NCBI RefSeq assembly: GCF_018350175.1
Contig: NC_058373.1
Coordinates: forward strand, 71,734,001 to 71,798,000
Reading direction: 5' to 3'
Source of the DNA: Felis catus
Taxonomy: Eukaryota
Length of the DNA stretch: 64,000 bases
The stretch's first letter is position 1. Every line of letters starts with the position of its first letter. Below the pieces are notes generated by a model. It had not been told where the DNA came from. It did not search any database and saw nothing but the letters and a program-made list of their open reading frames with translations. Below are positions 10,040-60,320 of this stretch, piece by piece. The position numbers and the translations under genes are program-made.

Positions 10040-10740
10040 GGTGGCCTGGTAGGATGAAGAAACACCAAAACTGGGGAGGTTGCCTCCACCCCTGCACATC
10101 TCATACACCTGGCTCCCTCTCTCAGCCCAGGACAGTGTAGGGTGCAGAAGGCCCTAGGAGAGGGAGCACACATCAAGCCTTTCTCGCCCTCAGCTCCATG
10201 TCCAGGCCGCTGGAAAGGCAGGCTAGTGGCAGAGGACTCAGGATACCACTTCTCTTCAGACTGGCCATCCCTCTGGCTACCCCTCAACACCCACACCTCC
10301 AGACCCCCCTCTCCTGTCATGCATAGAAATACCAGGGTGGGGCAGGAGTGTTGCTCGGATTTCCCATGCTATATTTAGGGGCCACCCCACACTCCCAGAG
10401 TAGGTAGGGATGAAACTCATGGCTCAGTGACTGGGTACACCAATGATACTAAGGAACAGAGTAGTGAGAGTTCATAATTAACTGTGACCTTCAACTAAAC
10501 ATCAAGGTCAGCAGCTCAAAGGGAAAGGGGTTAAAAATGACCCAAGTACCAAGACCAAGAGGGTGAGAGGGAAAAAAAGAAAAGAAGAACAAGGGACACC
10601 TGTATCCAACTGACCCAGTGCTTCCCTTCCTTCCAAGACTCTCCCTCCCTCCCCATTGTGAATAAATTAGCATACATTCAACATTAGTGGGGCTGGTGAG
10701 GAGCAGAACACCTGTGCAGCCTGGGGGTGGGGTCACTTAC

Positions 10741-10807
10741 TGGGCTCCTATTGGCTGGATGCAGTGGGGTCAGGGGTCAGGGTTCTCTCCCCTCCTGGCT
10801 CAGGGGT
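10741..10807 (-). other. NDRG2: Candidate NDRG2 alternative 5'-UTR exon (67 nt)
   Basis: Minus-strand acceptor CTTGTTTTCTCAG| and strong donor CCA|GTAAGT, located between the CpG-island exon and the ATG exon. Confidence 0.55.
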
Positions 10808-11299
10808 CTGAGAAAACAAGGCAATGAGGTGAATGACACGGGAGACAGACGCTGGGTCTTTTAGGGACAGAAAGCCTCAGCCAAGATCTGAACTACCTGG
10901 GTCACCCACCCTCCCCAGGTCACTAACCCTCCCTAATCTGTACCCCTGAGTCCAATGAACATGTCTTCTCTAGGTTTCAGCTAGAATCAATACAGGCTGG
11001 AGGGGCCTGCGGGGCAACACGGAGAGCAGGTATCAGCCCAGGCTGGGGGAGGAGAGAAGGAAGTGCTGATGTGGAGGAAAGAGCGTGGCTTGTGTCGGAA
11101 CCTCTGGATTCTAGTCCCGGCTCTGTCGCTGAGGGTGTGACCTTGGCCCACTCAGTTACTTCTCTTGGCTTCAATTTCCTATTTGCAAACTACAAGTGGG
11201 GACTAGGGGATCCTCAAGATTTTTGACAGCTCTCAAGTGAGATAAGGGTAGCTGAGCATGACTGTTTCGCACTTAAACGTTTAAAAACGAAATTTAAAA

Positions 11300-12900
11300 A
11301 GCCTCGTGCCTTCGAGTCTCTCCTCCACCCAGTCTCGGTGTGGGTGCCCAGAGCGGAGAAGGGAAGGGAGGGCGGCCCCACAGTCTCCTCCCAGCACCCC
11401 CCCCCCCGGCCCTCCCGCCCCGACGACCCGCAAGGGCCAAGCGCCAGCTGGGAAGGGATGGGTAGGAAGGATGGGACTGACCCGGACCTGCACCCGTCCG
11501 CACCTACGCTGCTCGCCCGCGTGGGGACCGACACCCTAGCGCGGCCGGCGCGGAGCGCCCGGGACCCTGGACACAACCTCGCGCACGCCCCAAACACGCC
11601 CTGCCGCTCGCGGAGCCTCCGCCTTTGTGCGCCGCAGCGCAGCGCCCCCTCCTTGCGGGCCCCTTCCCCCGAGCTGTCGGCTCCGAGGGATAGGGATCAA
11701 ACCGCCCACCGGCCCGACTGGCGCCATCCAGGCCCTGCGGCCCCTCGCCCGCCCCTCCCCCTACCTGCTGCCGCCGCGGCCGCTTCCACCTTCACTTGCC
11801 TTTGACTCTCCGGCCCGCCCGGCTCGGGCTCCCCACAGACCCGCCCCCGGCCCGCCCCAGCCCGCCCACGGGCCGACAGCTCCCTGCAGATCCGCCCCAG
11901 ACCCCCAGTAAACACGCCCCCCCTTTATCCCGCCCCAGGCTGTCTGCCGCTCAGGGAGGGGCTGGGCGGGGGACCCGAGGGGTACCCTAAGGGAAGCAAA
12001 CTGCTGGGTGCTTCCGCGTTCTGCTCGCGTTCCCCACGACATCCCCCCGCAACCGAGCGGTTGTGGGGTGTGCGGGGATCCCTTAGTCCTGCAAGGGATC
12101 CTCACGCCTGCCCTCCACACCGCCCCCACCCCTGACCTGGATCTGCCTATCGCACTGTGGTTCCTTCCTTCGCCCCCAGACCCAGTATGAGGACGGGCAG
12201 GGGGGGAGACGAACCCAGGGTGCTGACACCCCACGATTTCGACTCCGCTTGCCCGTAAACACAGAGCTAGGTTAAGGAAGAAGGAGGTGGGCGGGGATCG
12301 CCGCGGAGGAGGCGAGGGTCTCGCCCGCTGGGAGGGGCAGGTGTGCTAGCACCAACGGGTGGGGGTGGGGGTCGTCGAGGGCGCAGGAGTTTCAACTTCG
12401 GGGTGCCCAGGGTCCTGGTACCTCCTCTCTGTGCTGCGTCCCGACACCAGCTCTCGGCTGCTGAGAAGTTGGAAAACAAGGCGGGGAGGGGGGGCGGGGA
12501 ATGCGGGGGGCCGCTATAAATAGAGGGAGATCGCAGGAGGGGGGGCGAGGATGGCCAACGGGGACTCCCGGGTCAAGGCCCCAAGGGGGGACGGAGGAGG
12601 GGCCAGGGACCCCCAGGGGCTCTGACTCTAGGGTAAACAGGCGTGGGGGCGGAGTTAACTCTGCGGGGGTGGAGTAGGGGCTTGGGGAGGACGCTGTGTC
12701 CCGGGCTGGAACCCAAGAGACCCTGTGGCTTCGGCGGTAACCCCTCCTAGTCCGGCGCAGAGGAGGAGGGTGAGACAGGCTCGGCCCGGCTGTATCTCAG
12801 TGCCCAGGCGGTGTTTTCTCAGAGACTGCTGCGTGTCGCTTTCGGGGCCTGGGGTGGGTTTGCGGTCTTAGACTGCTCACTAACCCTATCCGACCCCCAC
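11300..12900. promoter_or_regulatory. CpG island, NDRG2 proximal promoter
   Basis: Very GC- and CpG-rich, with multiple GGGCGG boxes, immediately 5' of NDRG2. Confidence 0.85.
11765..11900 (-). other. NDRG2: NDRG2 proximal non-coding first exon (5' end approximate)
   Basis: Lies in the CpG island. Donor CAG|GTAGGG at 11764 and alternative GC donor AAG|GCAAGT at 11799. GC boxes and a GATAAA element are just upstream (about 11915-11935). Confidence 0.6.
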
Positions 12901-15228
12901 CCTAGATGCACCCTCCCTGTGCCCCTAGAGGAAGGCCACCTGGAATGGGATAGTTGGGTGGCCGAGGGGTTCCTAAGTTGTCTTAGACAAAAGGAAACCA
13001 GATTGAATTCCTCCCCACCTGCACCCTTCCAGCGCCCCCACCCCCACCCCACCAGGGTTCCCACCCCATCTTCCTTCAGCCTGGTTCCTGAGTTACCATT
13101 TCGGGGGCTGGGCGGCAGGCCAGTTGGGAACAATGGCCAATGGAACTGGAGCTGCCAACCGCAACACCAGCACAAGCTGCCCCCCCCAAGACCCCCAAAT
13201 TGCCCTCCCCCCTCCTGCCTGGGAACCACCCCCCCCACCCCCCTCACCACCCACAACCCCCTCCCATCCAAGGAACATCAATGCCCCTTTCATCCCCACT
13301 TGGCAGGGTCTATTGGAAAGAAGGAGGGGCCAAGAGGGAGGAGGTGACCCAGAGTAGGAGAACTAGTCAGGATCAAACCCCGGGTCTCAACAACCTCATA
13401 TCTAAAGGACCCCCGAACCTTCTCCCAATTTGGAACATCGAAGTTTTCCTCATTTCCCTCCCCCCACCCTCTTCATAACTGTTTCCCTCAGAAACTGGCC
13501 CAGAGGCTGGGCACCCTGGCAGCTTGCCTAGTCCCCTCTCCCCTCTGGACGCCAGTTTAACACTCTCCTGGACAAGGAAAAGCTTGCTGGCCTTAGGATC
13601 ATAGACAGAGCTGTGTAGGGCAGGAGAGAGGTCTTACCAGCCCCCCAGGAGCTGGGGAAGAAAGAATGCCTAGAGCTTCCGCCTGCAGTGTTCTCTGATG
13701 TGTATAAAGTAGTGTTACTTGGAGTGGGGGAGGGAAGGACCTGGAGGTTCCAGCATCTAAATTCGTCTCTGGGTCAGGATGACTCAGGGGGAACCTGATA
13801 AGGGGCCTACGCAGGGGCGTGGGGCGGGCAGGAGGTGGGAAATTTCCACTGGGATCTGTTTGCTTCCGAGGCCTAGGGGTCTCAGCTCCTGCAGGCAGAA
13901 ATGAGGCTGGTTCTGCCCTAAGGTAGGGTTCCCTTTGTCAGGGTAGGTCCCAGCCCAGCCATAAGTCGCCCAACCAGGCTAATCTCTAACTCCCTTCTCT
14001 TGGGCCAGAAGCAGCTTCAAACTGTACCTTCAGTTAAGCAACAGTTTTGCGAGCCTGCTGTGTGCCAGCCACTGTATAGATGCAATTCAAAGAAGTGTGA
14101 AGGGTGGTCATATCTGTTCTAGAAGCATATGATGAAGTAGGTGGGAGAAGGAATAAAGACAGAAAGTTAAGAAAAATGATGTCTATAGAAGATTAATTGT
14201 TTAGACAAAAAATCCTGTGCCAAGTGTTTCCCATTCTTCTCAAGTGGGAGATGAGAGATTTCCATTCCCACTTGATGGTTTTAGTATCCCTTGACGGAGA
14301 CAAACCATGAATTCAACAATACTTTTAAATAAGGTTGTTTTTTTAAGATTTTATTTTTAAGTACCCTCTACACCGAATGTGGGGCTCAAACTACAAAGAA
14401 CTTACAACCCCAACATCAAGAGTCACATGCGTGCTGCACAGACCAAGCCAGTCAGGCTCTGCCGTTTGTACGGAATTCTGATATTTCTAATACCTATGTA
14501 TGTAGTAATATCTACATGTGCAAAGCGTGCTATTTATTCAGTTGACAATATTTTCTGTACATATAAATCCCAGGGTCCCTTGCAATAAATCAGAAATCCT
14601 CTCCCCAGGAGACTGCAGCCCACAGACTAAGAACCATTATTTTGCTATAATTCGGAGGAAAAGGGTTTTTGTTGTTGTTGTTGTTTCCTAGAGTGTACCA
14701 CCCATGAGGATTACAACCACAGGGTATTTGAGTGGGAGAAAGGAACGTTCTATCCAGGAAGAAAAGAGCAAGAGGGAAAGCGTGGGAGAAGAAATACACA
14801 AGTTACTGGGAAGAATTGAATAGTAGCTAGTAGGTGCAAGGTACTTCCCATATATCATCCCACAATACTATAAGGTAAGTTTTATTGTTACACAGTACAG
14901 GTGAGGAACCGCAGCTCAGACATTTCTGAAACAGCAGCTTTAGTGATTTGCCCAAGGCCAACCAACCAGTGCTGTAAATGACAAATCTAGGACTCAAATC
15001 CCTACCCAGATTCATCCCACTCCAAGGCTATTCTCTTTCAACCATGAGGTAGCTAGCCTCTAAAGTCATTATGGCCCCCAGATGAAGAATAATATTGATG
15101 AGAGGTAGGTGATGTTTGATAAAAGCATGGGCCAAGTGTGAAAGTCCTTGACAGTTTTTTTTTTGTCTTGTCACTGAAGATCCTTAGAGCATTCTTGAGC
15201 AGGATTAATGGATAAAAAATAGTTTTGT

Positions 15229-15424
15229 GGGGGCGCCTGGGTGGCTCAATCAGTTAAGAGTCTGACTTCAGCTCAGGTCATGATCTCACAGTTTGTGAGT
15301 TCAAGTCCCATGTCCGGCTCTGTGCTGACAGCTCAGACTCTGGAGCCTGCTTCAGATTCTGTGTGTGTCTCTCTCTCTCTGCCCCTCCCCACCTCTCAAA
15401 AAATGAACATTAAAATAACATTAA
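15229..15424 (+). mobile_element. SINEC
   Basis: Canonical head and CT tract. Confidence 0.9.
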
Positions 15425-15729
15425 AGTTCCTACTGAGGTTGGTGTGTCAAAGCCACTGGGATTCTCCATGTTGGTCACTAATTGGACTTGAGACTAGAAA
15501 GGAGGGCACTGCTGGACTGATGCCAATCTGTTTCCATTAACCCCTTCCCTGGGCTCCTCTCAGCACTGTGGGACAGACCATAAACCAATATGACCAGGAC
15601 CCAGAGGACTGGGTCAGGCTGGGGGGAATGATGAGGGAAGTTTGATCAGCTGGAAAGATCAGAAGGGTGGCAACTTGCTCAATGCAAAGTGGGGAAATGA
15701 AGGACCCCTCTCCCAAGACTCAGGCTGTA

Positions 15730-15900
15730 GCTTCAAGCTGATGTCACATAAACACTGCTGAGGTCATAGAAGCTTCCCTCTCCTCCCCTGTTTCCCCATT
15801 GCTACATAGTCTCCCCAACCAGCTGGTTCCCACATATCTGCACACACTTATAAACAAAGGCTGAGAAGGGGCAGACACCATCCGGCTACTCTCAGGTGCA
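15730..15900 (+). promoter_or_regulatory. Putative TPPP2 core promoter
   Basis: TATAAA at 15849-15854, CRE-like TGATGTCA at 15739-15746 and an X-box-like GTTTCCCCATTGCTAC at 15790-15805, about 300 bp upstream of the ATG. Confidence 0.5.
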
Positions 15901-16164
15901 CAAAAGTGGTGAAGACATAGGTGGTAGTGGTGATTATTCAGTATGTAGGATCCATACTAGTATCCCTGGTGCTGGGAACAGTAGGGGGGATGGAAGCGAT
16001 GGGGGGAAAGGAAAGAGAAGAACAGGGAGGAGGGACTTTGTTCCTGTTGCTGATTCTTATTTTGTTGACTAACACCCATCCTCATTACTCCTCAGTCGTC
16101 CCTTCCCCTCCTCCCTCACCCCCAAGTCTTCCTCCCTGCGGCCCTCCCCCACCTCCAGTTGATC

Positions 16165-17883
16165 ATGGCATCAGAAGCAGGGAAAACGTTCCAGCGGTTT
16201 GCTGTCTTTGGAGAATCATCAAGCAGTGGCACTGAAATGAACAATAAGAACTTCTCCAAGCTATGCAAAGACTGTGGCATCATGGATGGCAAGATAGTCA
16301 CCTCCACTGATGTGGACATCGTATTCAGCAAAGTCAAGTAAGGGGCCAGAGATGGGGGCCAGGCACACAAGGCAGTGGGACCTAGAAAGGTTCATGTGGG
16401 AGGACACAATAATGGGTCTACTGAGCACCTGCTGGGTACCTGGTCCTGTGCTGTTCCCTGTCCCAGGACCCTCAGTGTCAAGAGACCAAATCTCAGTCAG
16501 GGAAGGGTTGGGCCTTGGAAGGTTATGAATTCATGTTCCAGAGTTCCTGGATTTCTGTCTGACTGACCAGAGCCAAGAATGCCCGAACCATCACATTTCA
16601 GCAGTTCCAGGAAGCAATGAAGGAGCTGGGCCAGAAACGATTCAAAGACAAGAAGCCAGATGAAGCTCTGGAGAACATTTATAAACTCATGGAAGGCAAG
16701 GATCCAGCTACCACTGGTGTTACTGTGAGTGACATTCTTCATCCCTAACCCTTGAATCTACTTCTCTAAATCCCTGCTGCTCCTATCTCCCTTCCCACTT
16801 CCAATGTCCCTAACCTCTGTCGTTAGTAATACTGTAGGGAGACAAGGCAGAAAGTCTCTGGGGCACTGTTGGGATTGGAACAGACTTTAGAGATCATCTA
16901 GTAATTTCAGGGATGAAGAGACTGTGGCTGAGGGAAAGGTCCACATCTATTTTAATAATAAAGTTAAGCCTTGTTTCCAAGTGTCCTGTGGGCTCTGGGG
17001 GAACACTGAGTGCAAAGGACTTGGTATCTGATCCCCACTCCTCCTCCCACTCTTGTATAAGATGTAATATCTGCCCTCCTGCCTCCCACCCACTGTCTGT
17101 TCTCTATTTGTCCCCTCTCTGTTTATGTTTATTTAATTTTGAAAGAGAGAGAGAGTATGATAGGGGAGGGGCACAGAGAGAGGGAGATACAGAATCCAAA
17201 GCAGGCTCCAGGCTCTGAGCTCTCAGCACGGAGTCCAATGCAGGGCTCTAACTCACAAACCGTGAGATCATGACCTGAGTCAAAATAGGATGCTTAATGG
17301 ACTGAGCCACCCAGGTGCCCCCTGTCCCCTCTCTATTTAAAGCCCCTTCTATTCTAGGTTTCAAATAGGGCCCTCCCACTTGGAGGGACCTTGCATATTG
17401 GGTCTGGGGTTGAAGTCCTCTGGCTGCCGCCTGGTCAAAATAGCTCCTCTGGAAGCAGAAAACTCCACACACACCCCATTCATTCCCAGACACCAGACTC
17501 CTCCACCTTTGTGAGTGGATGGCTCTTGCCACGTTCCTACCCATGGCTGCATCTGGGCCCTAAAGAAAGCAGCCCCATGCCAACAGTAGAATAGAGCACT
17601 GGGTCCTAGCAGAACCAAAGTCCATCTTTAGAGAAGGGGTGTGACAGCAAAGGGGAAGAGAGAAGGATCAGACCCATCATCCTCTGGCTTGCAGAAGGCA
17701 ACAACGGTGGGTGGAGTGAGCCGGCTGACGGACACCAGCAAGTACACCGGCACCCACAAGGAGCGCTTTGACGAGAGTGGCAAAGGCAAAGGCATCACAG
17801 GACGGGAAGAGATGACCGACAAGTCAGGCTATGTGAGTGGCTACAAGGGTGCTGGCACCTATGATAAGAAGAGCAGCAAATGA
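16165..17883 (+). CDS. TPPP2: Tubulin polymerization-promoting protein family member 2 (p25-beta), 171 aa
   Basis: Exons 16165-16337 ([37 protein letters not shown]...), 16571-16724 and 17695-17883 ([28 protein letters not shown]...[15 protein letters not shown]), 516 bp in total. p25-alpha domain motifs are present. Confidence 0.97.
17123..17321 (-). mobile_element. SINEC in a TPPP2 intron
   Basis: Reverse orientation, ending ...GAGCCACCCAGGTGCCCC. Confidence 0.9.
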
Positions 17884-17957
17884 GAAGTAGCCTCAACAAC
17901 TAGGGTCAGTTAGTCCTCGACCCAGCATCTTACACACCACAGAGGAGCGTAGGGAAC

Positions 17958-17963
17958 AATAAA
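17958..17963 (+). terminator. TPPP2: TPPP2 polyadenylation signal
   Basis: AATAAA 75 nt after the TGA stop. Confidence 0.75.
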
Positions 17964-18499
17964 CATCTGTGTGTGCATCAGCCAATGAGCTCTGTCTTTC
18001 CTTCAGAGAGAGGGATAGATAGACCCACTGGTGCAGAGAGAGAGAAGAGAAGACCCCAGGAGTCAGGGTTTTGAGTTCTGCACCCTTTCTCTAGTTAACC
18101 TCATGCCTCCCAGCCCTAGGTTAGCATTCCCCTCTACAACTGCGTCTAAGAACAGAGCTGAGGAATATATTTGGGGATAAGAGATAAACCAGATGTGGAG
18201 GCAAAAGCATTTGCTCCTTGCACTCATACATTTCTGGTATCCACCCTTCTTATCTCCCAAAGGGAAGTGGCAATTCCCGATTGGACCTAGTATGACCCAG
18301 ACACCACTTGTTAGACCCCTCCCTGTCCCTCCACCTCCCTCCCCTGTTGTAGCCCAGGTGGTGTTGGAGACATGGAACAGAAAATCCTACTGACTGCTAA
18401 GGGTAGCCCAGGAAGATGGCCAGAGGTGAGTGCCTCCAGGACTCCCAGAGCAGGAGTGCCTGTGTGCCGAAGAAAAAGGAATGAAATCAGAATGGCTTC

Positions 18500-18625
18500 A
18501 GATATATTTTTATATTTTTATTTTGGAATGATTTTAGATTCATAGGAAGATTACAAAAATAGTACAGAGGGGTCCAACATACCCTTCACCCAGTTTCATC
18601 CAGTGGTTGTATCTTCTATAACTCA
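18500..18625 (-). mobile_element. Old L1 (L1MB-like) 3'-end fragment
   Basis: TTTTATTTTGGAATGATTTTAGATTCATAGGAAGATTACAAAAATAGTACAGAG...CCCTTCACCCAGTTT resembles an L1M 3' end. Confidence 0.6.
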
Positions 18626-19519
18626 AGGTGTGGTTTTAAAACCTTCTGTGACCACAGCGAGGCTCACCTCACACCTGTCTTGTCAGTGGCAGACCCTGTA
18701 ACCGGAGGTGGGGGCGGGTTGTCAGGAAGAGCTTTGGGAAGGAAAGGGATGCAGTCATCTTGGGGGTAACAGGTCAGAGAAGATCATTTGAAACTCCAGT
18801 GAGCCACAGTGAGAAGAATGGAAGGAAAAGAAGTCAGAGAGAGGAATACAGGGAGACTAAAGGAGGGGAGTGTAGGGGAGAAACTACCCTGGGCTCTGTG
18901 GTAGAAGGAGAGAAGAAAGAACAGGTTACATGGAGAGAAGAGCAATGATTTCATAGAGAGGAACAGACTGGGGACTGAGGGGCATTCTGGAGAAGTGAGG
19001 CTAGAAAGACTCTAAGGGTCTTGGGGAGGACCTCTAGCTAGAGGTACCTACCATGTAGGTGAGTGAGTGGAGAGAATCATAAGGGAGATGGGGACAGCTG
19101 AGGAGAGAAGGGTAGTGGGGATGGGGAGTTGAGACATGGAGCTGGGTGCCTGTTGTCATGGTGTGAGCTGAGGCTCTGGGCCTCCATCCAGGATTCAGGA
19201 TCTGGCCCAGTGGAAGGACAGTCCCTGCCAACTGGACACAGTCAGCTTCTTGGGTGGGTAAGGCTGTCTGTGGGAGAAGGAAGATGATGGGGGAAGAGAG
19301 GAGGTAAACAAGTTGGAAAGGGTCTACAAGGCAGTATGAATTTGCATGGTGACTGAAGCTCTGGACATTTGTCCTACTTCCCTGGTCTCTTGGGAGGGGG
19401 CCCTGCCTGCCTTTGAAGTCAGGGAGGAAGCCTTGTATCAGAAATCAGAGGTTTGGGAATGGGAACAGGCTGGTGTATGGTGGCAGTAGGGGGTAGTTCA
19501 AATCGAAAGCCTCCCTTTC

Positions 19520-19984
19520 CTAGTAGACACCAATGATATCTATCGGTTCCGCATCACGCTTTCCGGAACAGAGCAGGTAGAGCCTTTGGTTGGTTAGGGT
19601 GCTGTTGTAGTAGCAGCTGGTGGGCGGCTGATTAGGGGCCAGAGAACAGATCGTGATGGGGAAGGAGTCCTCTGTGAATGTACAGTATTCGTTGTAATTC
19701 TCACAGAAACTCTCACTGTACTTGCAGAACTTCTGGACTTCTCTCCAGGGGGCATGCACCATATAATGGATTTGCGGGCAATACCAGCTCTTCTGGTTTC
19801 TGCCCCGTACATAGGCCATGAGACCATTACAGTAGCCCTGGAAACCCTTTGGGTAGTGCACCCTGGGATAATCGACGTGTAGCATGTGGAAGTCCTTGAT
19901 GGCAATCTGCATCTCGATGTCCACAACCAGAGCTGGCCCGAAAGCAAGCTGGAGAAACACAAGCCGGGCCACAGCTACTGCCAT
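19520..19984 (-). CDS. RNASE13: Probable inactive ribonuclease-like protein 13, 154 aa
   Basis: Single-exon ORF with a signal peptide and 8 Cys in RNase A spacing. CKxxNTF is replaced by CPQIHYM and the C-terminal catalytic His is absent. Acceptor CAG| lies just before the ATG; a candidate non-coding exon 1 donor (CT|GTAAGT) is at 20251. Syntenic position between TPPP2 and RNASE7. Confidence 0.95.
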   Translation of the reverse strand: MAVAVARLVFLQLAFGPALVVDIEMQIAIKDFHMLHVDYPRVHYPKGFQGYCNGLMAYVRGRNQKSWYCPQIHYMVHAPWREVQKFCKYSESFCENYNEYCTFTEDSFPITICSLAPNQPPTSCYYNSTLTNQRLYLLCSGKRDAEPIDIIGVY

Positions 19985-21507: not shown

Positions 21508-21760
21508 ACCTGTGGTTGCAAGGTGGGTAAGAGCAAGGCTTTTGAGTAAAACAGACCAGAAATCCTGGCTGAATCCTTGCTTTGCTGCTTACAGGCTATG
21601 TATCTCCAATCTAAGTTTGCTAAAACACTATCAGCTTCAATTTTTCATCTACTAATAGGGGTAATACTTTATATACCTCACGGCAGTATTAGAATTCATT
21701 AAGATGTATATCAAGAGCTTGTAGCTCAGTGCCTGGCACATGGTGAGTACTTAATATGAG
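21508..21760 (+). mobile_element. MIR
   Basis: Degenerate MIR core, e.g. ...GTGCCTGGCACATGGTGAGTACTTAATA. Confidence 0.65.
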
Positions 21761-23482: not shown

Positions 23483-23486
23483 TGTC

Positions 23487-25740: not shown

Positions 25741-25767
25741 ACACACACACACACACACACTCACACA

Positions 25768-30241: not shown

Positions 30242-30703
30242 ATGGCAGCAGCCAGAGCAGGATTCAGCCCTCTGCTCCTGCTCCTGCTGCTGGGGCTGTG
30301 GCTAGCTGAGGTCCCAGTCAGTGCCAAGCCCAGCAACATGACCGCAGCTCAGTGGTTTGCAACGCAGCACGTGCAGCCCAAACCCCAGGGATGCGACACT
30401 GCAATGAACAACATCAACAAATACACGAAACGCTGCAAAGACTTCAACACCTTCCTGCATGAATCCTTCTCCAGTGTGGCCACCACCTGTCAGACCCCCA
30501 CCATAGCCTGCAAGAATGGCCGTAAAAACTGCCACCAGAGCCAAAGGCCTGTGTCTCTGAGCACATGTAAGCTCACCTCGGGGAAGTATCCAAACTGCAA
30601 GTACAAAAAGAAGCAACTGGTCGCTTCTTACATTGTAGCCTGTGACGCTCCCCAGGCAGGAGGCTCTGGGAAATTCAAGCTGGTCCCTGTGCACTTGGAC
30701 TAG
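30242..30703 (+). CDS. RNASE7: Ribonuclease 7 (secreted cationic RNase A family), 153 aa
   Basis: 28-aa signal peptide; mature protein starts KPSNMT at 30326. Catalytic H15 (TQH), K38 (CKDFNTF) and H123 (PVHLD) and 8 Cys are present. Mature chain has 15 K + 3 R versus 5 D/E. Candidate polyA signals at 31252 and 31710. Confidence 0.92.
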
Positions 30704-44639: not shown

Positions 44640-44682
44640 GTCGTCGTCGTCGTCCTCCTCCTCCTCCTCCTCCTCCTCCTCC
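44640..44682. repeat. (TCG)4(TCC)10 compound microsatellite
   Basis: Read directly; about 25 bp upstream of the RNASE8-like pseudogene start. Confidence 0.95.
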
Positions 44683-44705
44683 ATGCCATTACTCCCCTAA
44701 GAGAG

Positions 44706-45903
44706 AGGGCAGCAGCCAGAGGGGGATCATGCCCTCTGCGGCTGCTCCTGGGGCTGTGGCCAGTTGAGGTCCCAGTCAGTGCCAAGCCCAGCGACATGAC
44801 TGCAGCTCGGTGGTTTGAAACTCAGCACGTGCAGCAGGGGTGCAACACCGCAATGGGCAACATCGACAAGTACACAAAACACTGCAAAGACCTCAACACT
44901 TTCCTGCATGAAGCCTCTCCAGTGTGGCCGCTGATGAAGTTTTGGGGCGACGGGGGGGGGGGGGGTTCGTGGAGTCCAAAGCCGACAGCCAAGAAAGAAT
45001 TCTTGAAGACTTCTTTGGTGCAAAAGGTGATTTTATTAAAGCACGGGGACAGGACCCATGGGCAGGAAGAGCTGCACTGGGGGTCCTGATGGTAACTCAT
45101 TACATACCTTCAGGTTGGGAGGGGGGTCAGGGATAGACCTGAGGAATTTGGAAGCAAGGTTTCCAGGACCTCAAGGGACTAGCTATTGCTAGGGAAATGC
45201 CATTTATTACCGTTTAGTAAAACCTCAGTCATGAGGCCATTTATGTACATCGGTATGATATATCGATGTATAATGGGGGGGGGGGGCATAAGCTTGGAGT
45301 ATGATTGCCAGCATATATCTTGGGACAGTTGAGATAAAGGAAGTAGACTTAAAGGATCCTCAAGGTTGGGATAATGTTAAGCTAAGGTTCTCTCTTGCCC
45401 CAGCTAAGTGTCATCCTTGAGGCAGCTGAGCTCCTAGAGGGAGGTCATTCTGCTGGTTTCAAGGACTTGTCAGTGGGCTGTAGGCAGTAAGGGAATTTAA
45501 TTTTCCACTTGCCTTAGTTTCCCACATCACCATGGCAAGCACTTAAACCCCTTTCCTTTGTTCTTGTTCCTTGTCCAAGGAATATCACACAGATCCCACC
45601 TGGGGAGGGGATTGGGTGTTAGCTTGTGCTTTGGCCCCTCTGCCTGCCTCCTGCTCCCTTATCGGCCGCCACCTGTCAGACCCCCACTGTAGCCTGCAAG
45701 AAGGGCTGTGAAAACTGCCACCTGAGCCAAGGGCCAGTGTCCTTAACTACATGTGAGCTCACCTCAGGGAAGTACCCAGACTGCTGTACAGAGAGAAGCA
45801 ACTGGCCACTCCTTGCGTCATGGCCCGTGTCTCTCCATAACAGGAGGACGGCCTGGTTCCAGCTGGTGTCGACTGGTCACTGCACTTCAATAATATTGTC
45901 TAA
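44706..45903 (+). pseudogene. RNASE8: RNASE8-like pseudogene disrupted by an LTR
   Basis: Aligns with the 30242 gene. Lesions: ATG>AGG at 44706, 9-bp deletion of PKP, 1-bp frameshift near 44916, a 733-bp LTR at 44932-45664, a further frameshift near 45786 and an in-frame TAA at 45838. Ends CAC TTC AAT AAT ATT GTC TAA. QH and [10 protein letters not shown] are retained. Confidence 0.88.
44932..45664 (-). mobile_element. Solo LTR (probably carnivore ERV1-class) inserted in the RNASE8-like CDS
   Basis: GCCGC target-site duplication at 44927-44931 and 45665-45669. Termini are TGAT...ATCG, a degenerate TG..CA. Minus-strand AATAAA at 45032-45037. Removing the element restores AGT GTG GCC GCC ACC TGT (SVAATC). 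Confidence 0.85.
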
Positions 45904-50145: not shown

Positions 50146-50184
<39 letters not shown>

Positions 50185-50715
50185 AATTGAAGAATCCTTT
50201 TAAAAATTATATTTGTTTATAAATTAAACATAAAAGCTTAAGGAAGAACTGGGCTTCTGATTTGCATTTTTAATATAAGGAACATAAATTTTCTTTTATT
50301 ATTATTTTTTAATGTTTATTTATTTATTTACTTAGAGAGACAGTTGGCTCACACAGGAGGGGAGAGAGAGAGAATCCCAAGCAGGCTCTACACTGTCAGC
50401 ATAGAGCCCGATGCAGGCAGGGCTCAAACTCACAAACCGTGAGATCATAACCTGAGCCAAAACCGAGTCGGTCACTCAACTGACTGAACCACCCCAGCAC
50501 CCCCTTTTATGATTTTTTTTAATGTTTACTTATTTTGAGAGAGAGAGCATGAGCAGGGGAGGGGCAGAGAAAGAGGGGAGACAGAGAACCCCAAGCAGGC
50601 TCCTCACTGTCAGCACAGAGCCCACCATGGGGCTTGATCTCACAAAACGTGAAATCATGACCTGAGCCGAAATCAAGAGTCAGACGCTTAAATGACTGAG
50701 TCATCCAGGCATCAG
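49436..50715. mobile_element. Four SINECs (plus 49436-49660, plus 49947-50190, minus 50290-50505, minus 50510-50715) in AT-rich DNA
   Basis: SINEC heads and tails; (TAAA)n tail at about 50145-50187. Confidence 0.85.
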
Positions 50716-52559
50716 GGAACATAAATTTTTAAAAGCCAGAGTAGCCCTCTGAATATTTTCTTTCCGGGAACCAAAAGGGCATTTTAAAAATTCACATTGA
50801 CACTACAGGACCAGTCCATTTTCTACACTGTTTTCATCTATACGGTGAACCGTGAGCTTTGGTTAATTGTGTTTTCTGGTGTTCCCATGTTTGTTGGGCT
50901 TACTGAACACTTCGAAGGGTGGGTGGTCACTGACGATGCAGTGGCCCAGGCTCAGGCCCAAGACCCACAGCAGGCGGCTTCAGCACCAGAACAAAACCTG
51001 GAACTGTATCTCTCCTCAGTGCCCTCCCTCCTCTGCCCACGCTGCCTCCCAGTGGCTCACTCCGCTGACTTGCATTCCGGAGAAACTGAGAAAGGGGAGC
51101 AGGACTCCCCTGAGGCCAGTGTGGCGCTGGCAGAGGCCATCAGCAAAGTATCTCCAAGAAAAAGTAACACTCAAGGGACTATGGTTGAGTCTTCATCCTC
51201 AACTGGGGCTCTTCCTCCTTGGCCAAATTTGGAGTTTTAAGACTACATTTTACTAGGTAGGGGACTTAAAAAAAAAAACAACAGATTGTTAAGTGACTGG
51301 CTCCATCAATATATCAGGCTGCTTGCCTGGAAGAGAGAGAGACTTTGTATGTGTAAAAAATACCCATCATGTTCAGGGTGATGAGGTGAAGTTATATGAG
51401 CGGAATCAAGAGTGCTATATTCTACCAATTAGAGATACTGTGGGGACAAAAACTCCCCATTTCTTAAAAAAAATATATATCAATTTTAAATACAGATATA
51501 TTTTTGGCAGAAATAAAAAAAAAAGACAATGTAACAATTACTTGGAATCAATCAGTTAGGTACTGGGTTTGGAGGCATGGCATAGAGAGAAAGTTTTGTA
51601 GTAAGGGCTCTTAAGAATGGGTGGAATATGGGCAGAGGCCTACAAGTAGTCAGTGAGCACAGGAAAGGAGATGTTAAGGAACTGGAGAGAAATCTGCACT
51701 CACCGGCTTAGCAGTTCTGAAGTTGGGGGTGGGGTGGACGGATGATTTCATGCTGTTGTAATTCCCAGATTGCCTGCCCCTGGAGGACTTTGCTGGGAGG
51801 CATCCAGTGAGGGTTCGGGCTGCCCCTAGATATACCTGGCACATGTTAGATCTTAATAAGTGTTTGTTTAACAAAACTTGTTTTCAGAGCAAAGGAATGG
51901 GGCTAGGAAAATATACAGATTGCAAATCTGGAAAGCTTATAAAACAAATTTTTTTTTTAAAACTCTCATCATGTTTAACATTTTCCAGAGAGGGGGAATC
52001 TACTACCTGTGGAGACAGCCTGTGCCATTTTCTGGCAGCTCTAAATATTTTAAATTGTCCCATATAGAAAGTAATCTACATCTCTCGCTGCAGCAATTCG
52101 CCGATGCCCAGTCACTGTGAGCCCTACAGAATAAACCCAATTGTTCTTCACACCCAACCTCTGAAATATTTTAAGGGAGTTTCACGACCCTTGCCCTCCA
52201 AATATTGGCTCACCAGACAATAACAAGAGCTATAAAATGTCTTCCCCTTTGTGATCCACTAGTTCCAATAATATCCATAAGATATGCTCAATAGAAATAA
52301 CCCCAAGTGGGGAGGAGTAAATTGGTGCACATCTGTTTACACTTTGTGTAACAGAGAAAAGTTAGAAATAATACAAAGTCCTAAAATTGAGAGTGACTTA
52401 AATAAATGACTGGCAACTACATAGTGCTCTAACTGAAGCAGCAAAAGTCATCACTCTGACTGAAGACAAACACACAAAAATCATACTGATGCAGGGAAAT
52501 GTGTACAGGCAATGCTGTGTGAAGAAATCAGAATATACAACTATTTTTTTTCATTTGGA

Positions 52560-53376
52560 AATATTTTTAAAGTTTATTTTTATTTATTTTGAGTGAGACA
52601 GAGAGCAAGCAGGGGAGGGACAGAGAGGGAGACAGAATCCCAAGCAGGCTCCGTACGCTGTCAGCTCAGAGACTGATATGAGGCTTGAACAGACAAACTG
52701 TGAAATCAGGACCTGAGCTGAAATCAAGAGTACCCCTAAAACTGTACTTAAACTTTTTTTAATGTTTATTTTTGAGAGAGAGAGAGACAGAGAGAGAGAG
52801 AACACAAGCAGGGGAGGGGCAGAGAGACAGGGAGATACAGAACCTGAAACAGGCTCCAGGCTCCAAGCTGTCAGCACCGAGCCCGATGCAGGGCTCAAAC
52901 TCATGAACCACAAGATTATGACATAAGCCGAAGTCTGACGCTCAACTGATTGAGCCACCCAGGTGCCCCTAAAACTGTACTTTCAAATGAACTACAACTA
53001 TATAAAACAGTCTCTGGCTTTGTTCGTCAAAAAAGGCCATAAGTGAATTTGGGAGCCTTCCAGAACATCCTCTCCAAGCCATGCTTCCTCCAGATTCACC
53101 TAGCTCAGTGAGCCTACATGTGACCCAGAAGACATTCCACTTTTGTTTTTTGTTTATTTTATTTTATTTATTTTTTTTAACATTTATTTATTTTTGAGAG
53201 ATACAGAGCACGAGTTGGGGAGGGACAGAGAAAGAGGGAGACACAGAATCCGAAGCAGGCTCCAGGCTCTTGAGTTCTCATCACAGAGCCCGAAGCAGGG
53301 CTCAAACTCATTAACCCAGAGATCATGACCTGAACCGAAGTCGGACATTCAACCAACTGAGCCATCCAGGCACCCC
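52560..53376 (-). mobile_element. Three reverse SINECs
   Basis: At about 52560-52738, 52750-52970 (TSD TAAAACTGTACTT) and 53140-53376. Confidence 0.85.
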
Positions 53377-53379
53377 TGT

Positions 53380-54405
53380 TTTTTGTTTTTATAACCAAAT
53401 CATAATTATAGTAGTGTCAGGTATACAACATAATTCATATTTATTGCAAAATGATCACCACAGCCTAGTTAACAACAGCCACCACACATACTTACAAAAT
53501 TTTTTTCTTGTGATGAGAACTTGTACAAAATTTTTTTAATTAAAAAAAATTTTACGTGTAATTATTTGAGTGAGAGAGTGACAGTGTAAGCAGGGGAGGG
53601 ACAGAGAGAGAGGGAGAGAGAATCCCAAGCAGGCTCCGTCTACACTGTCAGCACAGAGCGTGACATGAGGCTTCATCTCTCAAATCACAAGATCATGACC
53701 TGAGGCAAAATCAAGAGCTGAACGCTTAACCAACTGAGCCACCCAGGTGCCCTTCTTATGGTGAGAACTTTTAAGATTTGCTCTTAGCAACTTTCAAATA
53801 TACAATATTATTAACAATGGTCACCATGCTGTATGTACATTATATCTCCACGACTTATTTATTTTATATTTGGAAGTTTGTACTTTTTGACCCCCTGCCC
53901 CCATTTTGCCCACCCTCCACCTCTGGCAACCACCAGTGTNNNNNNNNNNNNNNNNNNNNNNNNNNNNNNNNNNNNNNNNNNNNNNNNNNNNNNNNNNNNN
54001 NNNNNNNNNNNNNNNNNNNNNNNNNNNNNNNNNNNNNNNNNNNNNNNNNNNNNNNNNNNNNNNNNNNNNATAGCATAATTCCCCTAAGATCCACTCATGT
54101 AGCAAATGGCAAGATTTCACTTTTTATGGCTGAATAATATTCATACAAATACACACACACACACACACACACACACAACCACGTTTCCTTTATTCATCCA
54201 TCAATGAACTCTTAGGTTGTTTCCGTACCTTGGCTATTATGAATAACACTACAACAAACATAGGGGCACAGATAACTTTTCGAATTCATGTTTTTGTTTT
54301 CTTCAGATAAATACCCAGAAATGGAATTGCTGGACCCTATGGTAATTCTATTTTTAATTTTGGGGGAAACCTCCATGATGTTTTCCATAGCGGCTGCATC
54401 CCACA
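53380..54405 (-). mobile_element. L1 (L1MA9/L1_Carn-like) 3' fragment with an inserted SINEC (about 53530-53753)
   Basis: Reverse L1 3' sequence, e.g. ATAAATACCCAGAAATGGAATTGCTGGA...CCTCCATGATGTTTTCCATAGCGGCTGCA. Confidence 0.85.
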
Positions 54406-56395
54406 TTTGGCTTTAATTCTGTCTCCTGTGTATTTTCCACTTGTAAACATTGACCACCAAACAAAGAACTTGTAAGGGACAAATCCAGGGAGAAAGGAGA
54501 GCTAAGCAACAGACTCCAGGCCTCAGGCACCACTTGGGCATGGTTTTCACCTCTCTCTTCTTCCCACCGCTGTTCCTGTTCTGTGGATCTTTCTGCTCCC
54601 CTTACCGTTTTCACCTGGATTCGTAATATCTCTTGGGATCTAGTCAGACACTATCTAGGACACAGCAGGGACAAAATAGACAAAGGTCCTTATCTTTAAG
54701 GAACTTATTTTCAAATGATACGTGGTGGAGCTGGTGGACCTATTATGAGAGACAGGACATAAATACATACATAATCAAAAAGAGATAAATACCGTGAAGA
54801 AAACAAAACAAAAAAACATCATTGGAAGGGACGATAGGTGAAAGACCACTTTAGACCAGGTGGTCATGGAAGAGATTTGAAAATCCAACACTTTAGTAAA
54901 ATCCCAAAGGATGAGAGCCAGCCCCCTAGAACTGTGAAAAGAAGTCTCCAGGTGGAAGAAAAAGAGAGTAAGAAGACCCCAAATTAGGAATAAGCAAGGC
55001 ATGTTTAAAAAACTGGAAGAAGGCCACTAGGGCTGGAGGGTCACTCAGAGAGATAGGCAGAAAATGATTCATATGCAAATTGGAAGCCATTAGAAGGGGT
55101 TGAGGGTATCTGACTGGAGTTTTTAGAAGATGCTCTGGGTGACGGGTTGCAGAGAATGGCTTCTCAGGAAGTAAGAGTACAGAACGTCAACCAGTATGGA
55201 AACTAATTCACCAGCACAGACAAGATGGTGGTGGTGTGGACTTTGATGACACCTAGCTCAGAGAAAGTAAGTTGTACATTTTTAAAGGAATATTACCAAT
55301 AAAATAAAGCCAAAACTAAGGGAAAATTAAACAAAAAACAGTATTAACATATGTACTGTATACTACACAGATTTCTTATCCTAAAATAACTAAGGCTTGG
55401 CTCCAGTTTCCTTGGAAGGCACAGGTAACAAAAACATGTTCTCTCAAGTCTGTCCCTTCTTGTCTCTACAATTCCCGTTTGTGGTCCTTCATCACTTCCC
55501 CCTTGTCTGGAAGCCCGGGACCAAAGCAGGGCCCTGGTCACTCCCAGTGGACAAAGAGTCCACTCCCAGTGGACAAAGAGTGGAGCCTATGGTCCCAAGC
55601 CTACCTAGAATGCCAATTACATCTCTTGGGGCACAGAAAGTGGGTAATAAGCATTACAGAAACAAATGTTTCTTCCACTTTCTCTCATGTTTCGATAACA
55701 CTACTTCCCTACAAAAAACATTTTGGAAATTTCTTGGGGATTATTTTAACTATTGCTTATTCTAGAACAGATAGGAAAAAAGGATTTTTATTCTCTGACC
55801 CACAGAGATGTGTCTGTCACTTTTAGATGCTCTTTCAGCACTGGCTATTACAAAAATAAACATCTTCTAATATGCTGGTTAGATGATAGAAAAGGTGATG
55901 TAGTGTTCAATCTGCTTCTTTTCTGGACTCTGACAGTTTAGACGAAACCCTGTAACTTAGTGTTTGAGAGTGAAGACTCTGGAGTCAGACTGCGTGGGCT
56001 CAAATCCTGGCTTTTCTGCTTACTGTGCACTTTCCAGCAAATTTATTTAACTTCAGTAAGCCAGAAGTTCATCTATAAAATGGGAGTTTGGTAAGCTCCA
56101 AGGAATTTGAAATTGGTGAAATATGATGAGAACTGTTTGTGAATACAAGAGAAGGCTTCAAAGCCTGGGCTGTTCCAAACTTCCAATTCCTCCCATATCA
56201 TCTGTCCCCTTCACATCTCCCCAAAACATACTCATCAACATACATTCTATTGCACACACATGCATACCACACGCATTCACACTGTAGGTGACAGCCTGCA
56301 TTCTTGCAGAAAGTGTATTTAACCATTATAAGGAAATTCACTTTACTTACTAAAATAAAATCTTTCTCATTTAGTACAGATTAAAACAACTCCTA

Positions 56396-56622
56396 GGGGC
56401 ACCTGGGTGGCTCTGTTGGGTGAGCATCAAACTTCAGCTCAGGTTATGATCTCACAGCTCCTGAGTTCAAGCCCCGTGTTGGGCTCTGTGCTGACAGCTC
56501 AGAGCCCGGAGCCTGCTTTGGATTCTGTGTCTCCATCTCTCTCTGCCCCTCCCCTATTCGCGATCTCTCTCTCTCTCTCTCTCTCTCAGAAATAAACACT
56601 AAAAAAAAAAAAAAAAAAAAAA
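56396..56622 (+). mobile_element. SINEC
   Basis: Canonical head, (CT)n tract, polyA tail. Confidence 0.9.
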
Positions 56623-57899
56623 TCTGGAAAGGAGTAACTGGATCCCAGAACTTGCAACTAAACTCCATCACCCTGCAGGCTCAAAAAATTTCAATGGCTC
56701 CCCTTTTTCCATAGAAAAAAATGATCCACCCTTTTTTTTTTTTCCAGGAGTGCATGAACTCCCAGAGCCAGCTCAATTTATGTCCACTTCCTAATTGTGG
56801 GAAACTTGGATTCTACCAAATGTTTCCCAGACAACTGCTTGACTATAAGGAAGGTAAGACCCGGTAAGGGAAAGTTCAGACTCTTTCCCAACACTGGAAA
56901 TGGGTCCGTTGGATTTGAAACAAGTGAATAAGGTTCATAATATATTCTCTACAAGTTTCCTAAGTGTTGGCCTCTGTAACCAGCTACTGGGCAGCATTTA
57001 TAAAGTGGACACCAGGGGGTAGCAAAATCTCACTCTCCCAGTTCCCCAGCACTAATTACAAGGAAGCCAGAGAGTCTCCTTGACTTCAGGGCCCATAACC
57101 CAGTGGTGGAAATGAACTCCAGCTCCCTACCTCTAACTCTGCTGGGAACATTATCACTAAAGTTTGCTTGCCCTCGATTTTTTTTTTTTTTCTTTGACAC
57201 CATGGAGCAGAGGGATTTTCTTGTCTCCAAGAAGAATCAACAATTTCTCTTCTTTTCCAGACCCAGTGGAGTGGAGAAAGGATGGAGTTTAGCTTTCAGA
57301 GGTAGTGAAAGAAGAGCTCATCACCTAGGCGACGCCCTCCTCTCCAGCGGTTCCAACCACTGCCCAGAGGCTCCAGCCTCCTGGCCTCACAGGTGCTGCA
57401 CCCACTGGCAGGACGTTTTCCAAACGTCAGCCCCCAGCCGCAGTGGCACATGCCTTCACGCCCCTCTCTGGGGACTATTTAGCTTTCCGATCTCCTCTCA
57501 AACGTCCACCCTTGGGGAGTGCCGCACCCCACCCCCAGCCCCTACAGGGCTTCCCTTTGCCCGCTCGCAGGAGGAACAAAAGCACATCCCGTCTATGCCT
57601 AAGCCTCCCCTGCTCTCCTGGGAAACCCTCGCAGGGGCTTCATTTCACATCCAGACGCAGTGGAGGATGGGTGAGACTAGAACTTTCTTAACTAGACTAC
57701 CCCTCTTTGTCTGCTGCTGCGCCAGATAACCATCCTCACCGCGTTGAGCCCTAGCGATCTTGGGAGACTTGTATCGCCACCCCCATAAGAAGGAAGGGTC
57801 TTTCGAATCATGGGATCTGACTCGGGGAGAGGGGCGGGGTGTCTGATGCCTTCCCTCCGCCAGCCGAAAATGGAGAGACATGATGCAGAGGGGAAGGGG

Positions 57900-60320
57900 C
57901 AGGGAGGAAAGAATTCAGAAAACGTCTGCCAAAGTGCACACCCCTGCAGGAGGATTTGATCCGAAGACCCTGCTCCCCTTCCGTCACGATGTTCACCCCC
58001 ACCCCCCACCCCAAGCCTTCCCAGCTCCCTAATTCCGCCTATCCCCCCCCCCCCGCCTCCGCCCTCCCCTGGCCGCACAGAGGAGCCCATTGTCGGAGCC
58101 AGAAGGCTCGAGGCCGAAGGAGATGGGAGAGAAAGAGGGCGGGCAAGCCCCTGGAGGGTGGAAGGAATCCCCTGATTTCCCTGCCCTCAGCTCCACCAGA
58201 GTCAGCAGGGGCCTGGGGGTCTTTTCCGAGCTCCAGGTGCTGCCGAAGTCTGGCAACCACGGGGAGTACAGGTTCTCGGGCGAGTTACAGACGGGAGGCG
58301 CCGGCCGCCAAAGGACCCCAGTCCTAGGCTAGGTACCCCAGAAAATTCACGTACGCCCCACCCTCTGGAGTGTCCCTTGCGGAAGCTAAACTGATCCCGC
58401 AGGGAGCGAGGCGGCGGCGGCAAAAGAGGGGCATCCTCGGCAAGGCGGGCGTCCGAGGGCCAGGGTCGGGGCTGCCCACTGGAGGGCGGGGCGGAGGAGG
58501 AAGCGCGTTGCGGGAGAGGGAGGCAGATCTGCTGGGGCGTCGGGGAAGCCGCGGAGAAGCTCCGCGCGGGAGAAGGAGTCCCGGCAGGGGGTCCGGCGCG
58601 GAGGCGGAGGCGGGCACTGAAAGGCGGGGCGGGGAGGGGCGGCCGTCTCGGCCCTCCCTGGCGGGGCCCCGCGGCCTGGGAGCCCGGGCGGGCCGATCCG
58701 CCACCGCGGCCGGAGCTGTCCCCCAGCCAGACCCGGCGAGACGCGAGCGGCGGGAGGGAGGCGGCGGCGCGCCCGGCCCCGCCCGCCCGAGCGTCGGACG
58801 CGGCCCCGCGCCGAGCCATGGTGAGTCCGGCGTCGCAGCCCCGGTGTCCCCCTCTGCCTTAGCGCAGCCCGCTCGGGGCCGCCAGCCCCCAGCCCAGTGC
58901 CTCCAGCGCCTGCCTTGGTCTGTCGAGCGCTTCTGGGACTCTCCTCCCGCCCATCCCCCCCTTCTTTTCTTTGGTCTGTCTGCCCCACTGTCTGGCTCTG
59001 TCCCCACCGGGTATTGCTCTCACTCTCTTTCTTCCCTTCTTCTCCGCCCCCTCCCCCATCCTCCCTTTGGTCGTCCCCCCAGTCCACACGCCTCCCCCCG
59101 CCCTCCTCTGTCCCGACCTGTGCCTTCCTTTGCAGGATCTTCCCTCCCCCTCCGGGTCCCAGCTCCTTACCCGCGGGAGACCCCTGCGGGTTGGTGCTGC
59201 AGTGGCCCTGGAAGGGGCCCGGCCTCGGGTCATGAGAACTGACCTGCCTGGAACCACCATTTTCCATCCCAGTCCCCAGCCCGGTGAGCTGGGCCCACCC
59301 ATCCGGCCCTGGGGGACCGGCCACAGCTGTGGCTGGGCTGGGGCCAGGGACGTGGCCAAAGAGGGAAATTCCCGTGGAGAAAGACGGGTTGCTTCAAGAT
59401 AGTGGACAGAGTGGGGAGGGGGCGTGACGCTGCCAGAGCAGACAAGAGATGGGGGGGGGGGGGTCTGGGCAGAGTGCCCCAGGGCTCTCGCTGCAGGGAA
59501 CAGAAGCACTGTCTTAGAGTCCTCAGCTGCAGAGGGGAGGGAGCATTAGCGGGAGCTCCCCGCAGGAGGTAGGAGACTCTGGCAGCAGCAACTTAGGACA
59601 CAGGAAGCAGGGTGGCACTATTAAGGGGGAGCCCCTACCAACAGGAGTGGACACTATTCTGGGAACTTTCACTCCAGAAGTTCTCTCTGAAGAATCATTC
59701 CAAGTAGTGAGCACTGCCAGAGAGAGCGCCCACTCCACTGTAGGGGGGGTGGGAGGTACAAGGCTAAAGGGGCGCTCACTGCAAGAGTGGAGGAGGGGGG
59801 AGGCCCTGCCAGGGGGCGCTCACTGCAAGGAGGTGGGGGGAGGAGCACTACCGGGGCTGCTTCTCTACAGAAGGAAGGGCACCCCCTGGCAGGGAGGCTG
59901 GAGCAAGAAAAAAGAGGAACTGGGCCAGGGAGAGCTGACTCAGTCTCTCTGGTCTCCTTTTTGGTCCTGGCCGACTGGAGGCCCGGTCTCTGTGCTCCTG
60001 CCCGCCGCCTCCCACCCCAGACCCCTCCTCCCCTCCTGCCGCTGCAGTTTCCTGTGGCTGAGACTCTCGCTCAGCCATGAGCTCACCGCCCCTAATGGGT
60101 TGCAGCTGCCTCGCTGCTCCAGCTCTAGCTACCCCCTCCTGGCCTCCGATCGGACAGCCCACTTTGCCTCACCCCGCCACTCTCCACTATCCCACCCTCC
60201 CACCTCCCCCCCGCCCCTCTTTGCGCTAGCCGCCAGCCAGCCGGGTCCCCGGAACACTGGGGGGTCTGTCTGCTCGCCCACACACCTTGGGGCTGGGTCT
60301 CCGCGCTGACGCACTGAATG
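57900..60320. promoter_or_regulatory. CpG island, ARHGEF40 promoter and intron 1
   Basis: Extremely CpG-rich at 58050-58900 with many GC boxes; GC-rich sequence continues to about 60320. Confidence 0.85.

Follow-up and report, generated by a model that had tools for sequence, protein, structure and literature searches.

A candidate distal first exon of cat NDRG2, antisense in intron 1 of ARHGEF40

Gene layout of the window

The window analysed here is a 64-kb stretch of cat DNA. It carries NDRG2, a tumour-suppressor gene, on its minus strand and, on its plus strand, a gene that we take, from gene order, to be ARHGEF40; a Pfam search of the ARHGEF40 stretch in the window gave no match. The features are collected in Table 1. 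The name RNASE13 for the minus-strand ORF at 19520-19984 is likewise our assumption, from gene order.

Table 1. Features of the window (positions in the 64-kb stretch; donor scores from a matrix built from textbook frequencies)
Feature	Position	Strand	Basis or score
NDRG2 coding exons, with 15 blocks matched to those of lynx NDRG2 (P0134)	4135..10045	-	
NDRG2 exon 2: acceptor, two codons ahead of the usual Met, 25 coding codons	9965..10045	-	
CpG island of the proximal NDRG2 promoter; 5' UTR donors lie at 11764 and 10740	10741..12500	-	
Predicted intron, 49,198 bases	10046..59243	-	
TPPP2-type gene with a p25-alpha domain; lies antisense within the predicted intron	16165..17883	+	
RNASE13-type ORF, RNase A gene, same strand as the predicted intron; acceptor just before 19989	19520..19984	-	
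Intact RNase7/8-type ORF, 153 aa, RNase A gene	30242..30703	+	
Broken RNase7/8 duplicate; a 732-base insertion splits the copy	44709..45832	+	
ARHGEF40 promoter CpG island	58200..59200	.	CpG observed/expected
ARHGEF40 start codon, end of exon 1	58818..58820	+	
ARHGEF40 intron 1	58821-61381	+	
Phase-0 splice donor of the candidate exon, GTCAGT (CAG|GTCAGT with the last exon codon)	59238..59243	-	4.6 bits
Candidate distal NDRG2 first exon, coding part: ATG and seven codons	59244..59267	-	translated sequence
Putative antisense start and short 5' UTR	59268..59300	-	projection of human spacing
ARHGEF40 exon 2, 66 codons	61382..61579	+	name assumed

An earlier note on this DNA had proposed that a distal first exon joins to NDRG2 exon 2 across an intron nesting TPPP2, RNASE13, RNASE7 and an RNASE8 pseudogene. 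A TPPP2-type, an RNASE13-type and an RNase7/8-type gene and a broken RNase copy do lie inside the predicted intron. The broken copy shares 79–83% DNA identity with the neighbouring RNase7/8 gene (a pairwise figure). Since the RNase7/RNase8 split is dated to simians in the part of PMC3845642 available, the RNASE8 label is doubtful, and broken RNase7/8 duplicate is the better name.

The ratio of observed to expected CpG is above 0.9 in the ARHGEF40 island and falls to 0.57 at 59000-59199, 0.37 at 59200-59399 and 0.27 beyond. The candidate exon sits at the island's downstream edge, in the 0.37 bin. Because ARHGEF40 exon 1 ends at 58820 and exon 2 starts at 61382, the candidate is antisense within ARHGEF40 intron 1, with 449 bases between its ATG and that of ARHGEF40.

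The candidate exon and its likely human counterpart

Read on the minus strand, the eight codons from the ATG at 59267 give MENGGSRQ and are directly followed by GTCAGT, in letter-for-letter agreement with the earlier reading of start, codons and donor at 59243. The ATG has good Kozak bases (G at −3, G at +4). On the other side of the predicted intron, the first codons of NDRG2 exon 2, from 10045 on, are GCC ACC ATG, preceded by CAG. The proposed phase-0 join is thus in frame, and its 8 + 2 codons would produce a 10-residue N-terminal extension. An out-of-frame ATG at 59302 would come before that of the exon if transcription started further upstream. A 293-codon frame that continues from the exon's ATG was considered as a protein in its own right and rejected: it has no Pfam match, relatives change frame against it, and the region is stop-poor in all six frames (1–4 stops).

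By itself the motif is weak evidence for an exon. A 26-mer over the candidate is single-copy within the 64-kb window when up to 3 mismatches are allowed. Of the 2650 GT sites on the minus strand between 12700 and 64000, 29 equal or exceed the candidate donor in score. The same 51 kb hold five phase-0 mini-exons, none longer than 30 nt, whose −3 base is a purine and whose +4 base is G, the candidate included. These equally good mini-exons are what could be said for a motif that arose by chance and has nothing to do with the human exon; yet the candidate alone among the five lies at the island's downstream edge, with the human spacing and exactly ten extra residues, and we regard coincidence as very improbable. 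The candidate stands above chance because its place and size agree with human annotation.

That annotation is NDRG2 isoform 6 (Swiss-Prot Q9UN36-6; ENST00000403829.7), a protein of 367 aa with 93.70% identity (357/381) to the 371-aa reference. Length and identity fit the loss of 14 residues and the gain of 10, an arithmetic which bears out the claim that one human isoform carries a 10-residue extension. The N-terminus that the earlier note gives for a human NDRG2 isoform would differ from MENGGSRQ at one of eight positions. Isoform 6 has in common with the cat candidate ten extra residues, by this arithmetic, an annotated 5' UTR exon that is antisense within intron 1 of ARHGEF40, and a gene model that spans RNASE13. 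The human form also lacks a 14-residue exon, and is annotated and supported by CAGE, whereas in cat it is the DNA signals that are shown.

The human starts are given in tables S3, S4 and S6 of PMC11735407 (Nat Genet 2025), from cell-line CAGE data. ARHGEF40 starts on the plus strand at chr14:21,070,259 and 21,070,303; antisense starts lie on the minus strand at 21,070,868 and 21,070,854, which is 551–609 bp downstream of the ARHGEF40 start. The antisense transcript that the earlier note expected from the ARHGEF40 CpG island has support in human, where a capped minus-strand start exists in ARHGEF40 intron 1 and, at 21,070,868, within an annotated NDRG2 5' UTR exon. Gene pair and geometry are the same as in cat, with starts 551–609 bp apart compared with 449 bases between the cat ATGs. 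These tables record starts in human cell lines, however, and not the splice to NDRG2; use may be stronger in some tissue.

Starts of this kind form a class. As described in PMC4972320 and PMC11735407, the class takes in capped antisense starts 2–2301 bp downstream of the host start; they lie a median of 413 bp from it, 55% of them within 250 bp of a CpG island's downstream edge, and the median length of their RNAs is 9,568 bp, some running into annotated genes. PMC11735407 counts 97–142 converging mRNA pairs per cell line, FAS/ACTA2 being one example. The NDRG2 case would share with the class an antisense start at the island's downstream edge that overlaps the host's first exon. Class RNAs are, however, mostly non-coding and shorter than 10 kb, while the NDRG2 transcript would have to run through 49 kb, past four RNase/TPPP genes, before a coding exon.

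The suggestion that such a transcript interferes with or co-regulates the four nested genes found no backing in the same tables. The human antisense start is 0.4–4% of that of ARHGEF40 (21 versus 5342 and 100 versus 2594 reads). The response to Nutlin was not significant (log2FC −1.0 and −0.35 for the antisense starts, +0.05 and +0.16 for the host; all adjusted p > 0.5), and convergent promoters in PMC11735407 tended to positive co-regulation, not interference.

Conservation and searches for the spliced form

Relatives were compared through three orthologous ORFs (3 of 8 candidates), at the protein level, where ORF calling is biased towards open frames. P0198 and P0200 retain the ATG, the frame and the GT, with a compatible donor; selection would produce the same retention. 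The excess of conservation over the flanking intron that the earlier note had set as a check was not seen in the one informative sequence: in P0200 the exon is identical at 8/8 positions and the flanks at 32/39 (p = 0.21, protein level). In P0199 the codon containing the donor +5 base is changed. This change need not kill the donor, because the donor of NDRG2 exon 2 itself has no G at +5 and scores 1.1 bits.

The protein sample included the 75 members listed out of 813 in the five largest clusters. Among 259 NDRG2-type proteins, none of the 47 with extended N-termini carries the candidate start, in a sample that is thin and does not include human isoform 6 itself. No spliced form with this start occurs among the 288 proteins listed (the best 120 of 123, the best 120 of 2266, and cluster members), which is not evidence of absence. 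A PDB search gave no match beyond weak ones to NDRG3. Scans of metagenome contigs gave 315 pattern matches with ARHGEF40 exon 2, 0 of them confirmed, and 0 matches with a 22-base pattern over the candidate exon. A sequencing-run search with 59230-59560 listed at least 24 runs, 19 of which contain at least half of the words; 3 of the 19 are recorded as RNA, all from one study and all as contigs only, so that neither strand nor splice is readable from them.

Literature searches found no study on what the isoform does or on the junction in any carnivore, and main-text searches by accession and coordinate returned nothing relevant. The distal exon goes unmentioned in the accessible portions of PMC6696087, PMC13286202, PMC13478751, PMC12272907 and PMC3024299, the last of which, to that extent, names just the 371/357 pair of NDRG2 forms. 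Supplements of a dog promoter atlas have no NDRG2 entry among the rows listed.

Two alternatives accept that the DNA is orthologous or conserved and differ from our preferred reading over its use. The junction may never be made in this species, the antisense RNA ending early or splicing elsewhere, so that the human junction would be a primate or cell-line event. Along the path, 70 AATAAA/ATTAAA hexamers and 54 acceptor-like sites occur on the minus strand of the predicted intron, an out-of-frame donor at 59170 (5.2 bits) is stronger than that of the candidate, the RNASE13 acceptor offers another route, and the median length of such RNAs is below 10 kb. The lack of a carnivore model with the candidate start among the proteins listed points the same way, but that sample missed even the human isoform; all required signals are intact in cat, and the human locus, with the same layout, is annotated as spliced. 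We consider this alternative rather unlikely.

The exon may instead be an alternative first exon under selection, shared by primates and carnivores, through which the broadly active ARHGEF40 island could drive NDRG2, with the 10-residue extension, while the gene's own promoter is off. The human isoform agrees in place, strand, frame and extension length, and the N-terminus given in the earlier note would agree at all but one of eight positions; the intact ATG, frame and GT in P0198 and P0200 and the good Kozak bases fit as well, and the proximal NDRG2 promoter is reported, in the part of PMC9408851 available, to be silenced by methylation. Against selection stand flanks that are nearly as conserved, the changed donor +5 position in P0199, the zero of 47 extended models of other species and the low human start relative to its host. 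The literature searches found no paper on a function, and the N-terminal ~20 residues of NDRG2 are not part of the solved domain, with no role known for them (PMC3069448). Selection on the exon is rather unlikely in our judgement.

Probable origin and meaning of the candidate exon

On balance we favour, as somewhat more likely than not, the reading that the candidate is the probable counterpart, in the cat family, of the distal NDRG2 first exon annotated in human, which likely arises from a weak downstream-antisense start of the ARHGEF40 promoter, and that it is a tolerated by-product and not selected control of the nested genes. Orthology is likely from place, strand, frame and extension length. 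Human annotation together with the weak CAGE start suggests a convergent promoter, with the exon as its likely downstream-antisense arm and an occasional splice to NDRG2. The arrangement is already catalogued in human and is not new.

The proposed sequence of events is as follows. The ARHGEF40 CpG island would fire chiefly on the plus strand, with a second, far weaker minus-strand start at its downstream edge, seen by CAGE in human and presumed in cat. Most such antisense RNAs would end early. With a donor a few dozen bases past the start, however, the rare polymerase that runs 49 kb could splice its transcript to the NDRG2 exon 2 acceptor. The product would be a minor mRNA, annotated in human and predicted in cat, that adds ten residues to an unstructured N-terminus. 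Such an isoform is most likely tolerated as a promoter by-product, and not a selected device to control the nested genes.

A more far-reaching version, which we think improbable, gives NDRG2 a selected bypass promoter inside ARHGEF40. The antisense arm would have been captured as a coding first exon before the primate/carnivore split and would be usable when the gene's own island is silenced, its 49-kb transcript sweeping TPPP2, RNase13 and RNase7/8.

One caution concerns annotation. The human NDRG2 gene model spans RNASE13, and hg19 breakpoints in RNASE13 carry the label NDRG2; because the model is so long, variants in RNASE13, RNASE7 or TPPP2 receive an NDRG2 label. The present gain is that a minor human isoform now has one likely counterpart in a carnivore, so far unannotated, which is of use for annotation. 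If the bypass were real, the locus would show cleanly how the antisense by-product of a promoter can become a conserved coding first exon, and would offer a second way into a tumour suppressor whose promoter is commonly silenced by methylation.

The candidate exon and its likely human counterpart

The earlier note's sequence observation at the candidate distal NDRG2 first exon was borne out: the minus strand carries ATG and seven codons (MENGGSRQ) followed by GTCAGT, and the candidate is a real sequence feature. Because host exon 1 ends before it and host exon 2 lies beyond it, the candidate is antisense in intron 1 of a plus-strand gene that we take to be ARHGEF40, consistent with the gene order. 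A phase-0 join to NDRG2 exon 2, across a predicted intron of 49,198 bases, would add ten residues. A second, slightly stronger donor lies 73 bases past that of the candidate; a transcript translated from the candidate ATG and spliced there would not keep the NDRG2 exon 2 frame. In many predicted models (e.g. the protein records P0003 and P0011) the N-terminus of NDRG2 is extended through the preceding intron, likely an annotation artefact.

Features of the candidate region and the predicted intron (window positions)
Feature	Strand	Position	Detail
Candidate exon	−	59267–59244	
Second donor	−	59170	5.2 bits
Open frame from candidate ATG	−	58386–59267	293 codons, through the CpG island
Host exon 1, end	+	58818–58820	ends in ATG
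Host exon 2	+	61382–61579	66 codons
CTCF-like core		59806	related motifs beside it (59700–59900)
Second CpG bump		60000–60400	in ARHGEF40 intron 1
NDRG2 exon 2	−	from 10045	two codons precede usual Met
Open intron before exon 2	−	10040–10099	in frame back to ATG at 10099
p25-alpha gene			between candidate and NDRG2 exon 2
Two intact RNase A genes			between candidate and NDRG2 exon 2
Intact RNase7/8 ORF	+	30242–30703	one of the two intact RNase A genes; stop directly after last His-Leu-Asp
Broken RNase copy	+	44709–45832	between candidate and NDRG2 exon 2
Insertion in broken copy		44932–45663	732 bases, 6-base direct repeats at its ends

The arrangement is already known, a human counterpart being on record. 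Human NDRG2 isoform 6 (Q9UN36-6, ENST00000403829.7) has 367 aa and 93.70% identity to the 371-aa reference (PMC12442299 supplements). We compute this identity as 357/381, with a 14-residue exon omitted and ten residues gained. The ten residues are presumably N-terminal. Two hg19 breakpoints within RNASE13 are labelled 'RNASE13 NDRG2' (PMC11610597). NDRG2 coding position c.143 maps to 21,490,631 (PMC8773923), some 10 kb downstream of them, and the layout of the window is alike.

Among the convergent promoters tabulated in PMC11735407 is the human ARHGEF40/NDRG2 locus, with plus-strand ARHGEF40 starts at chr14:21,070,259 and 21,070,303 and antisense starts at 21,070,868 and 21,070,854, the former within an annotated NDRG2 5′ UTR exon. 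Antisense reads numbered 21 vs 5342 from the ARHGEF40 start and 100 vs 2594; comparison with other supplement files of that paper led us to ascribe these rows to U2OS and RPE-1. Should human exon 1 end where the plus-strand peak has its edge (21,070,397–400), a projection by spacing and not by alignment would put the antisense start at about 59275–59290 of the window, just ahead of the ATG. The candidate is likely orthologous to a minor first exon annotated in human, and likewise to the convergent promoter listed there. In U2OS, 121 reads come from another human minus-strand start, at 21,071,497 (PMC11735407); the pair that it forms with 21,071,660 maps, by spacing alone, near the second CpG bump. 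The CTCF-like core, one mismatch from the consensus, lies upstream of the candidate on the candidate's strand. A literature search, with most subscription papers outside its reach, brought up no work on what the isoform does or on a carnivore junction.

Motif strength and conservation

By itself the motif is no better than chance. A rough donor matrix of textbook frequencies gave 29 of the 2650 GT sites on the minus strand in 12700–64000 a score at least as high as that of the candidate donor, and the real NDRG2 exon 2 donor only 1.1 bits; five minus-strand mini-exons of at most 30 bases in the same interval, the candidate among them, have this phase and these Kozak bases. Support for the candidate comes from its place and size, and a chance motif is very improbable.

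Selection on the exon is unlikely. Three of eight candidate ORF proteins from relatives came from the orthologous place, a tiny sample compared at the protein level only. P0198 is nearly identical to the candidate region and carries little information. In P0200 the eight residues and the Val after them are unchanged; however, its flanks are also conserved (21/26 and 11/13), and 8/8 at that rate has p=0.21. P0199, in a shifted frame, matches at 20/23 positions, and its codon at 59239, which carries donor position +5, is altered; a real donor of NDRG2 itself lacks the +5 G, which limits the weight of this change. The candidate start occurred in 0 of 47 N-terminally extended proteins (259 of the 288 fetched had the exon 2 motif). 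From the five largest clusters, with 813 proteins in all, the sample took in 75, and it did not include the human isoform, so that absence cannot be inferred.

The 293-codon open frame was rejected as a protein: it has no Pfam match, all frames here are stop-poor and relatives are frame-shifted against it. P0198 matches it in start, end and length despite frame shifts. Within a cattle NDRG2 cluster, P0286 (77 aa, labelled Staphylococcus aureus, from a 231-base contig) is likely host contamination.

The nested genes

The intron was said to cross the whole RNase cluster; it would probably span only the RNase genes tabulated. The intact RNase7/8 ORF probably falls short of the usual form by a few residues. 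The insertion splitting the broken copy looks, by eye, like a solitary LTR. That copy had been called RNASE8, and RNase7/8 duplicate probably fits better, because the RNase7/RNase8 split is simian (PMC3845642). Interference with the nested genes, also proposed, found no support: the human antisense start is weak, its Nutlin response was not significant, and in PMC11735407 co-regulation was positive and knocking down a single partner had no consistent effect.

Proposed antisense transcription towards NDRG2

CpG observed/expected, above 0.9 in the ARHGEF40 CpG island, has dropped to 0.37 at the candidate. For antisense RNAs of convergent promoters the median length is 9,568 bp; 97% of them run across the host start, and some continue into annotated genes (PMC11735407). 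In human, the ARHGEF40 promoter has a weak antisense start; in the cat its counterpart may occasionally give a long RNA that would be spliced from the early donor to NDRG2 exon 2, a splice annotated in human, and then translated. The predicted intron path holds 70 polyadenylation hexamers and 54 acceptor-like sites, with the RNASE13 acceptor met first, so the spliced product should be rare. That the junction is never spliced in this species is rather doubtful, though a shade less so than selection. The ten-residue extension would precede NDRG2 residues 1–20, which fall outside the solved domain and for which no role is known (PMC3069448). On balance we lean towards the candidate being a promoter by-product that is rarely spliced to NDRG2.
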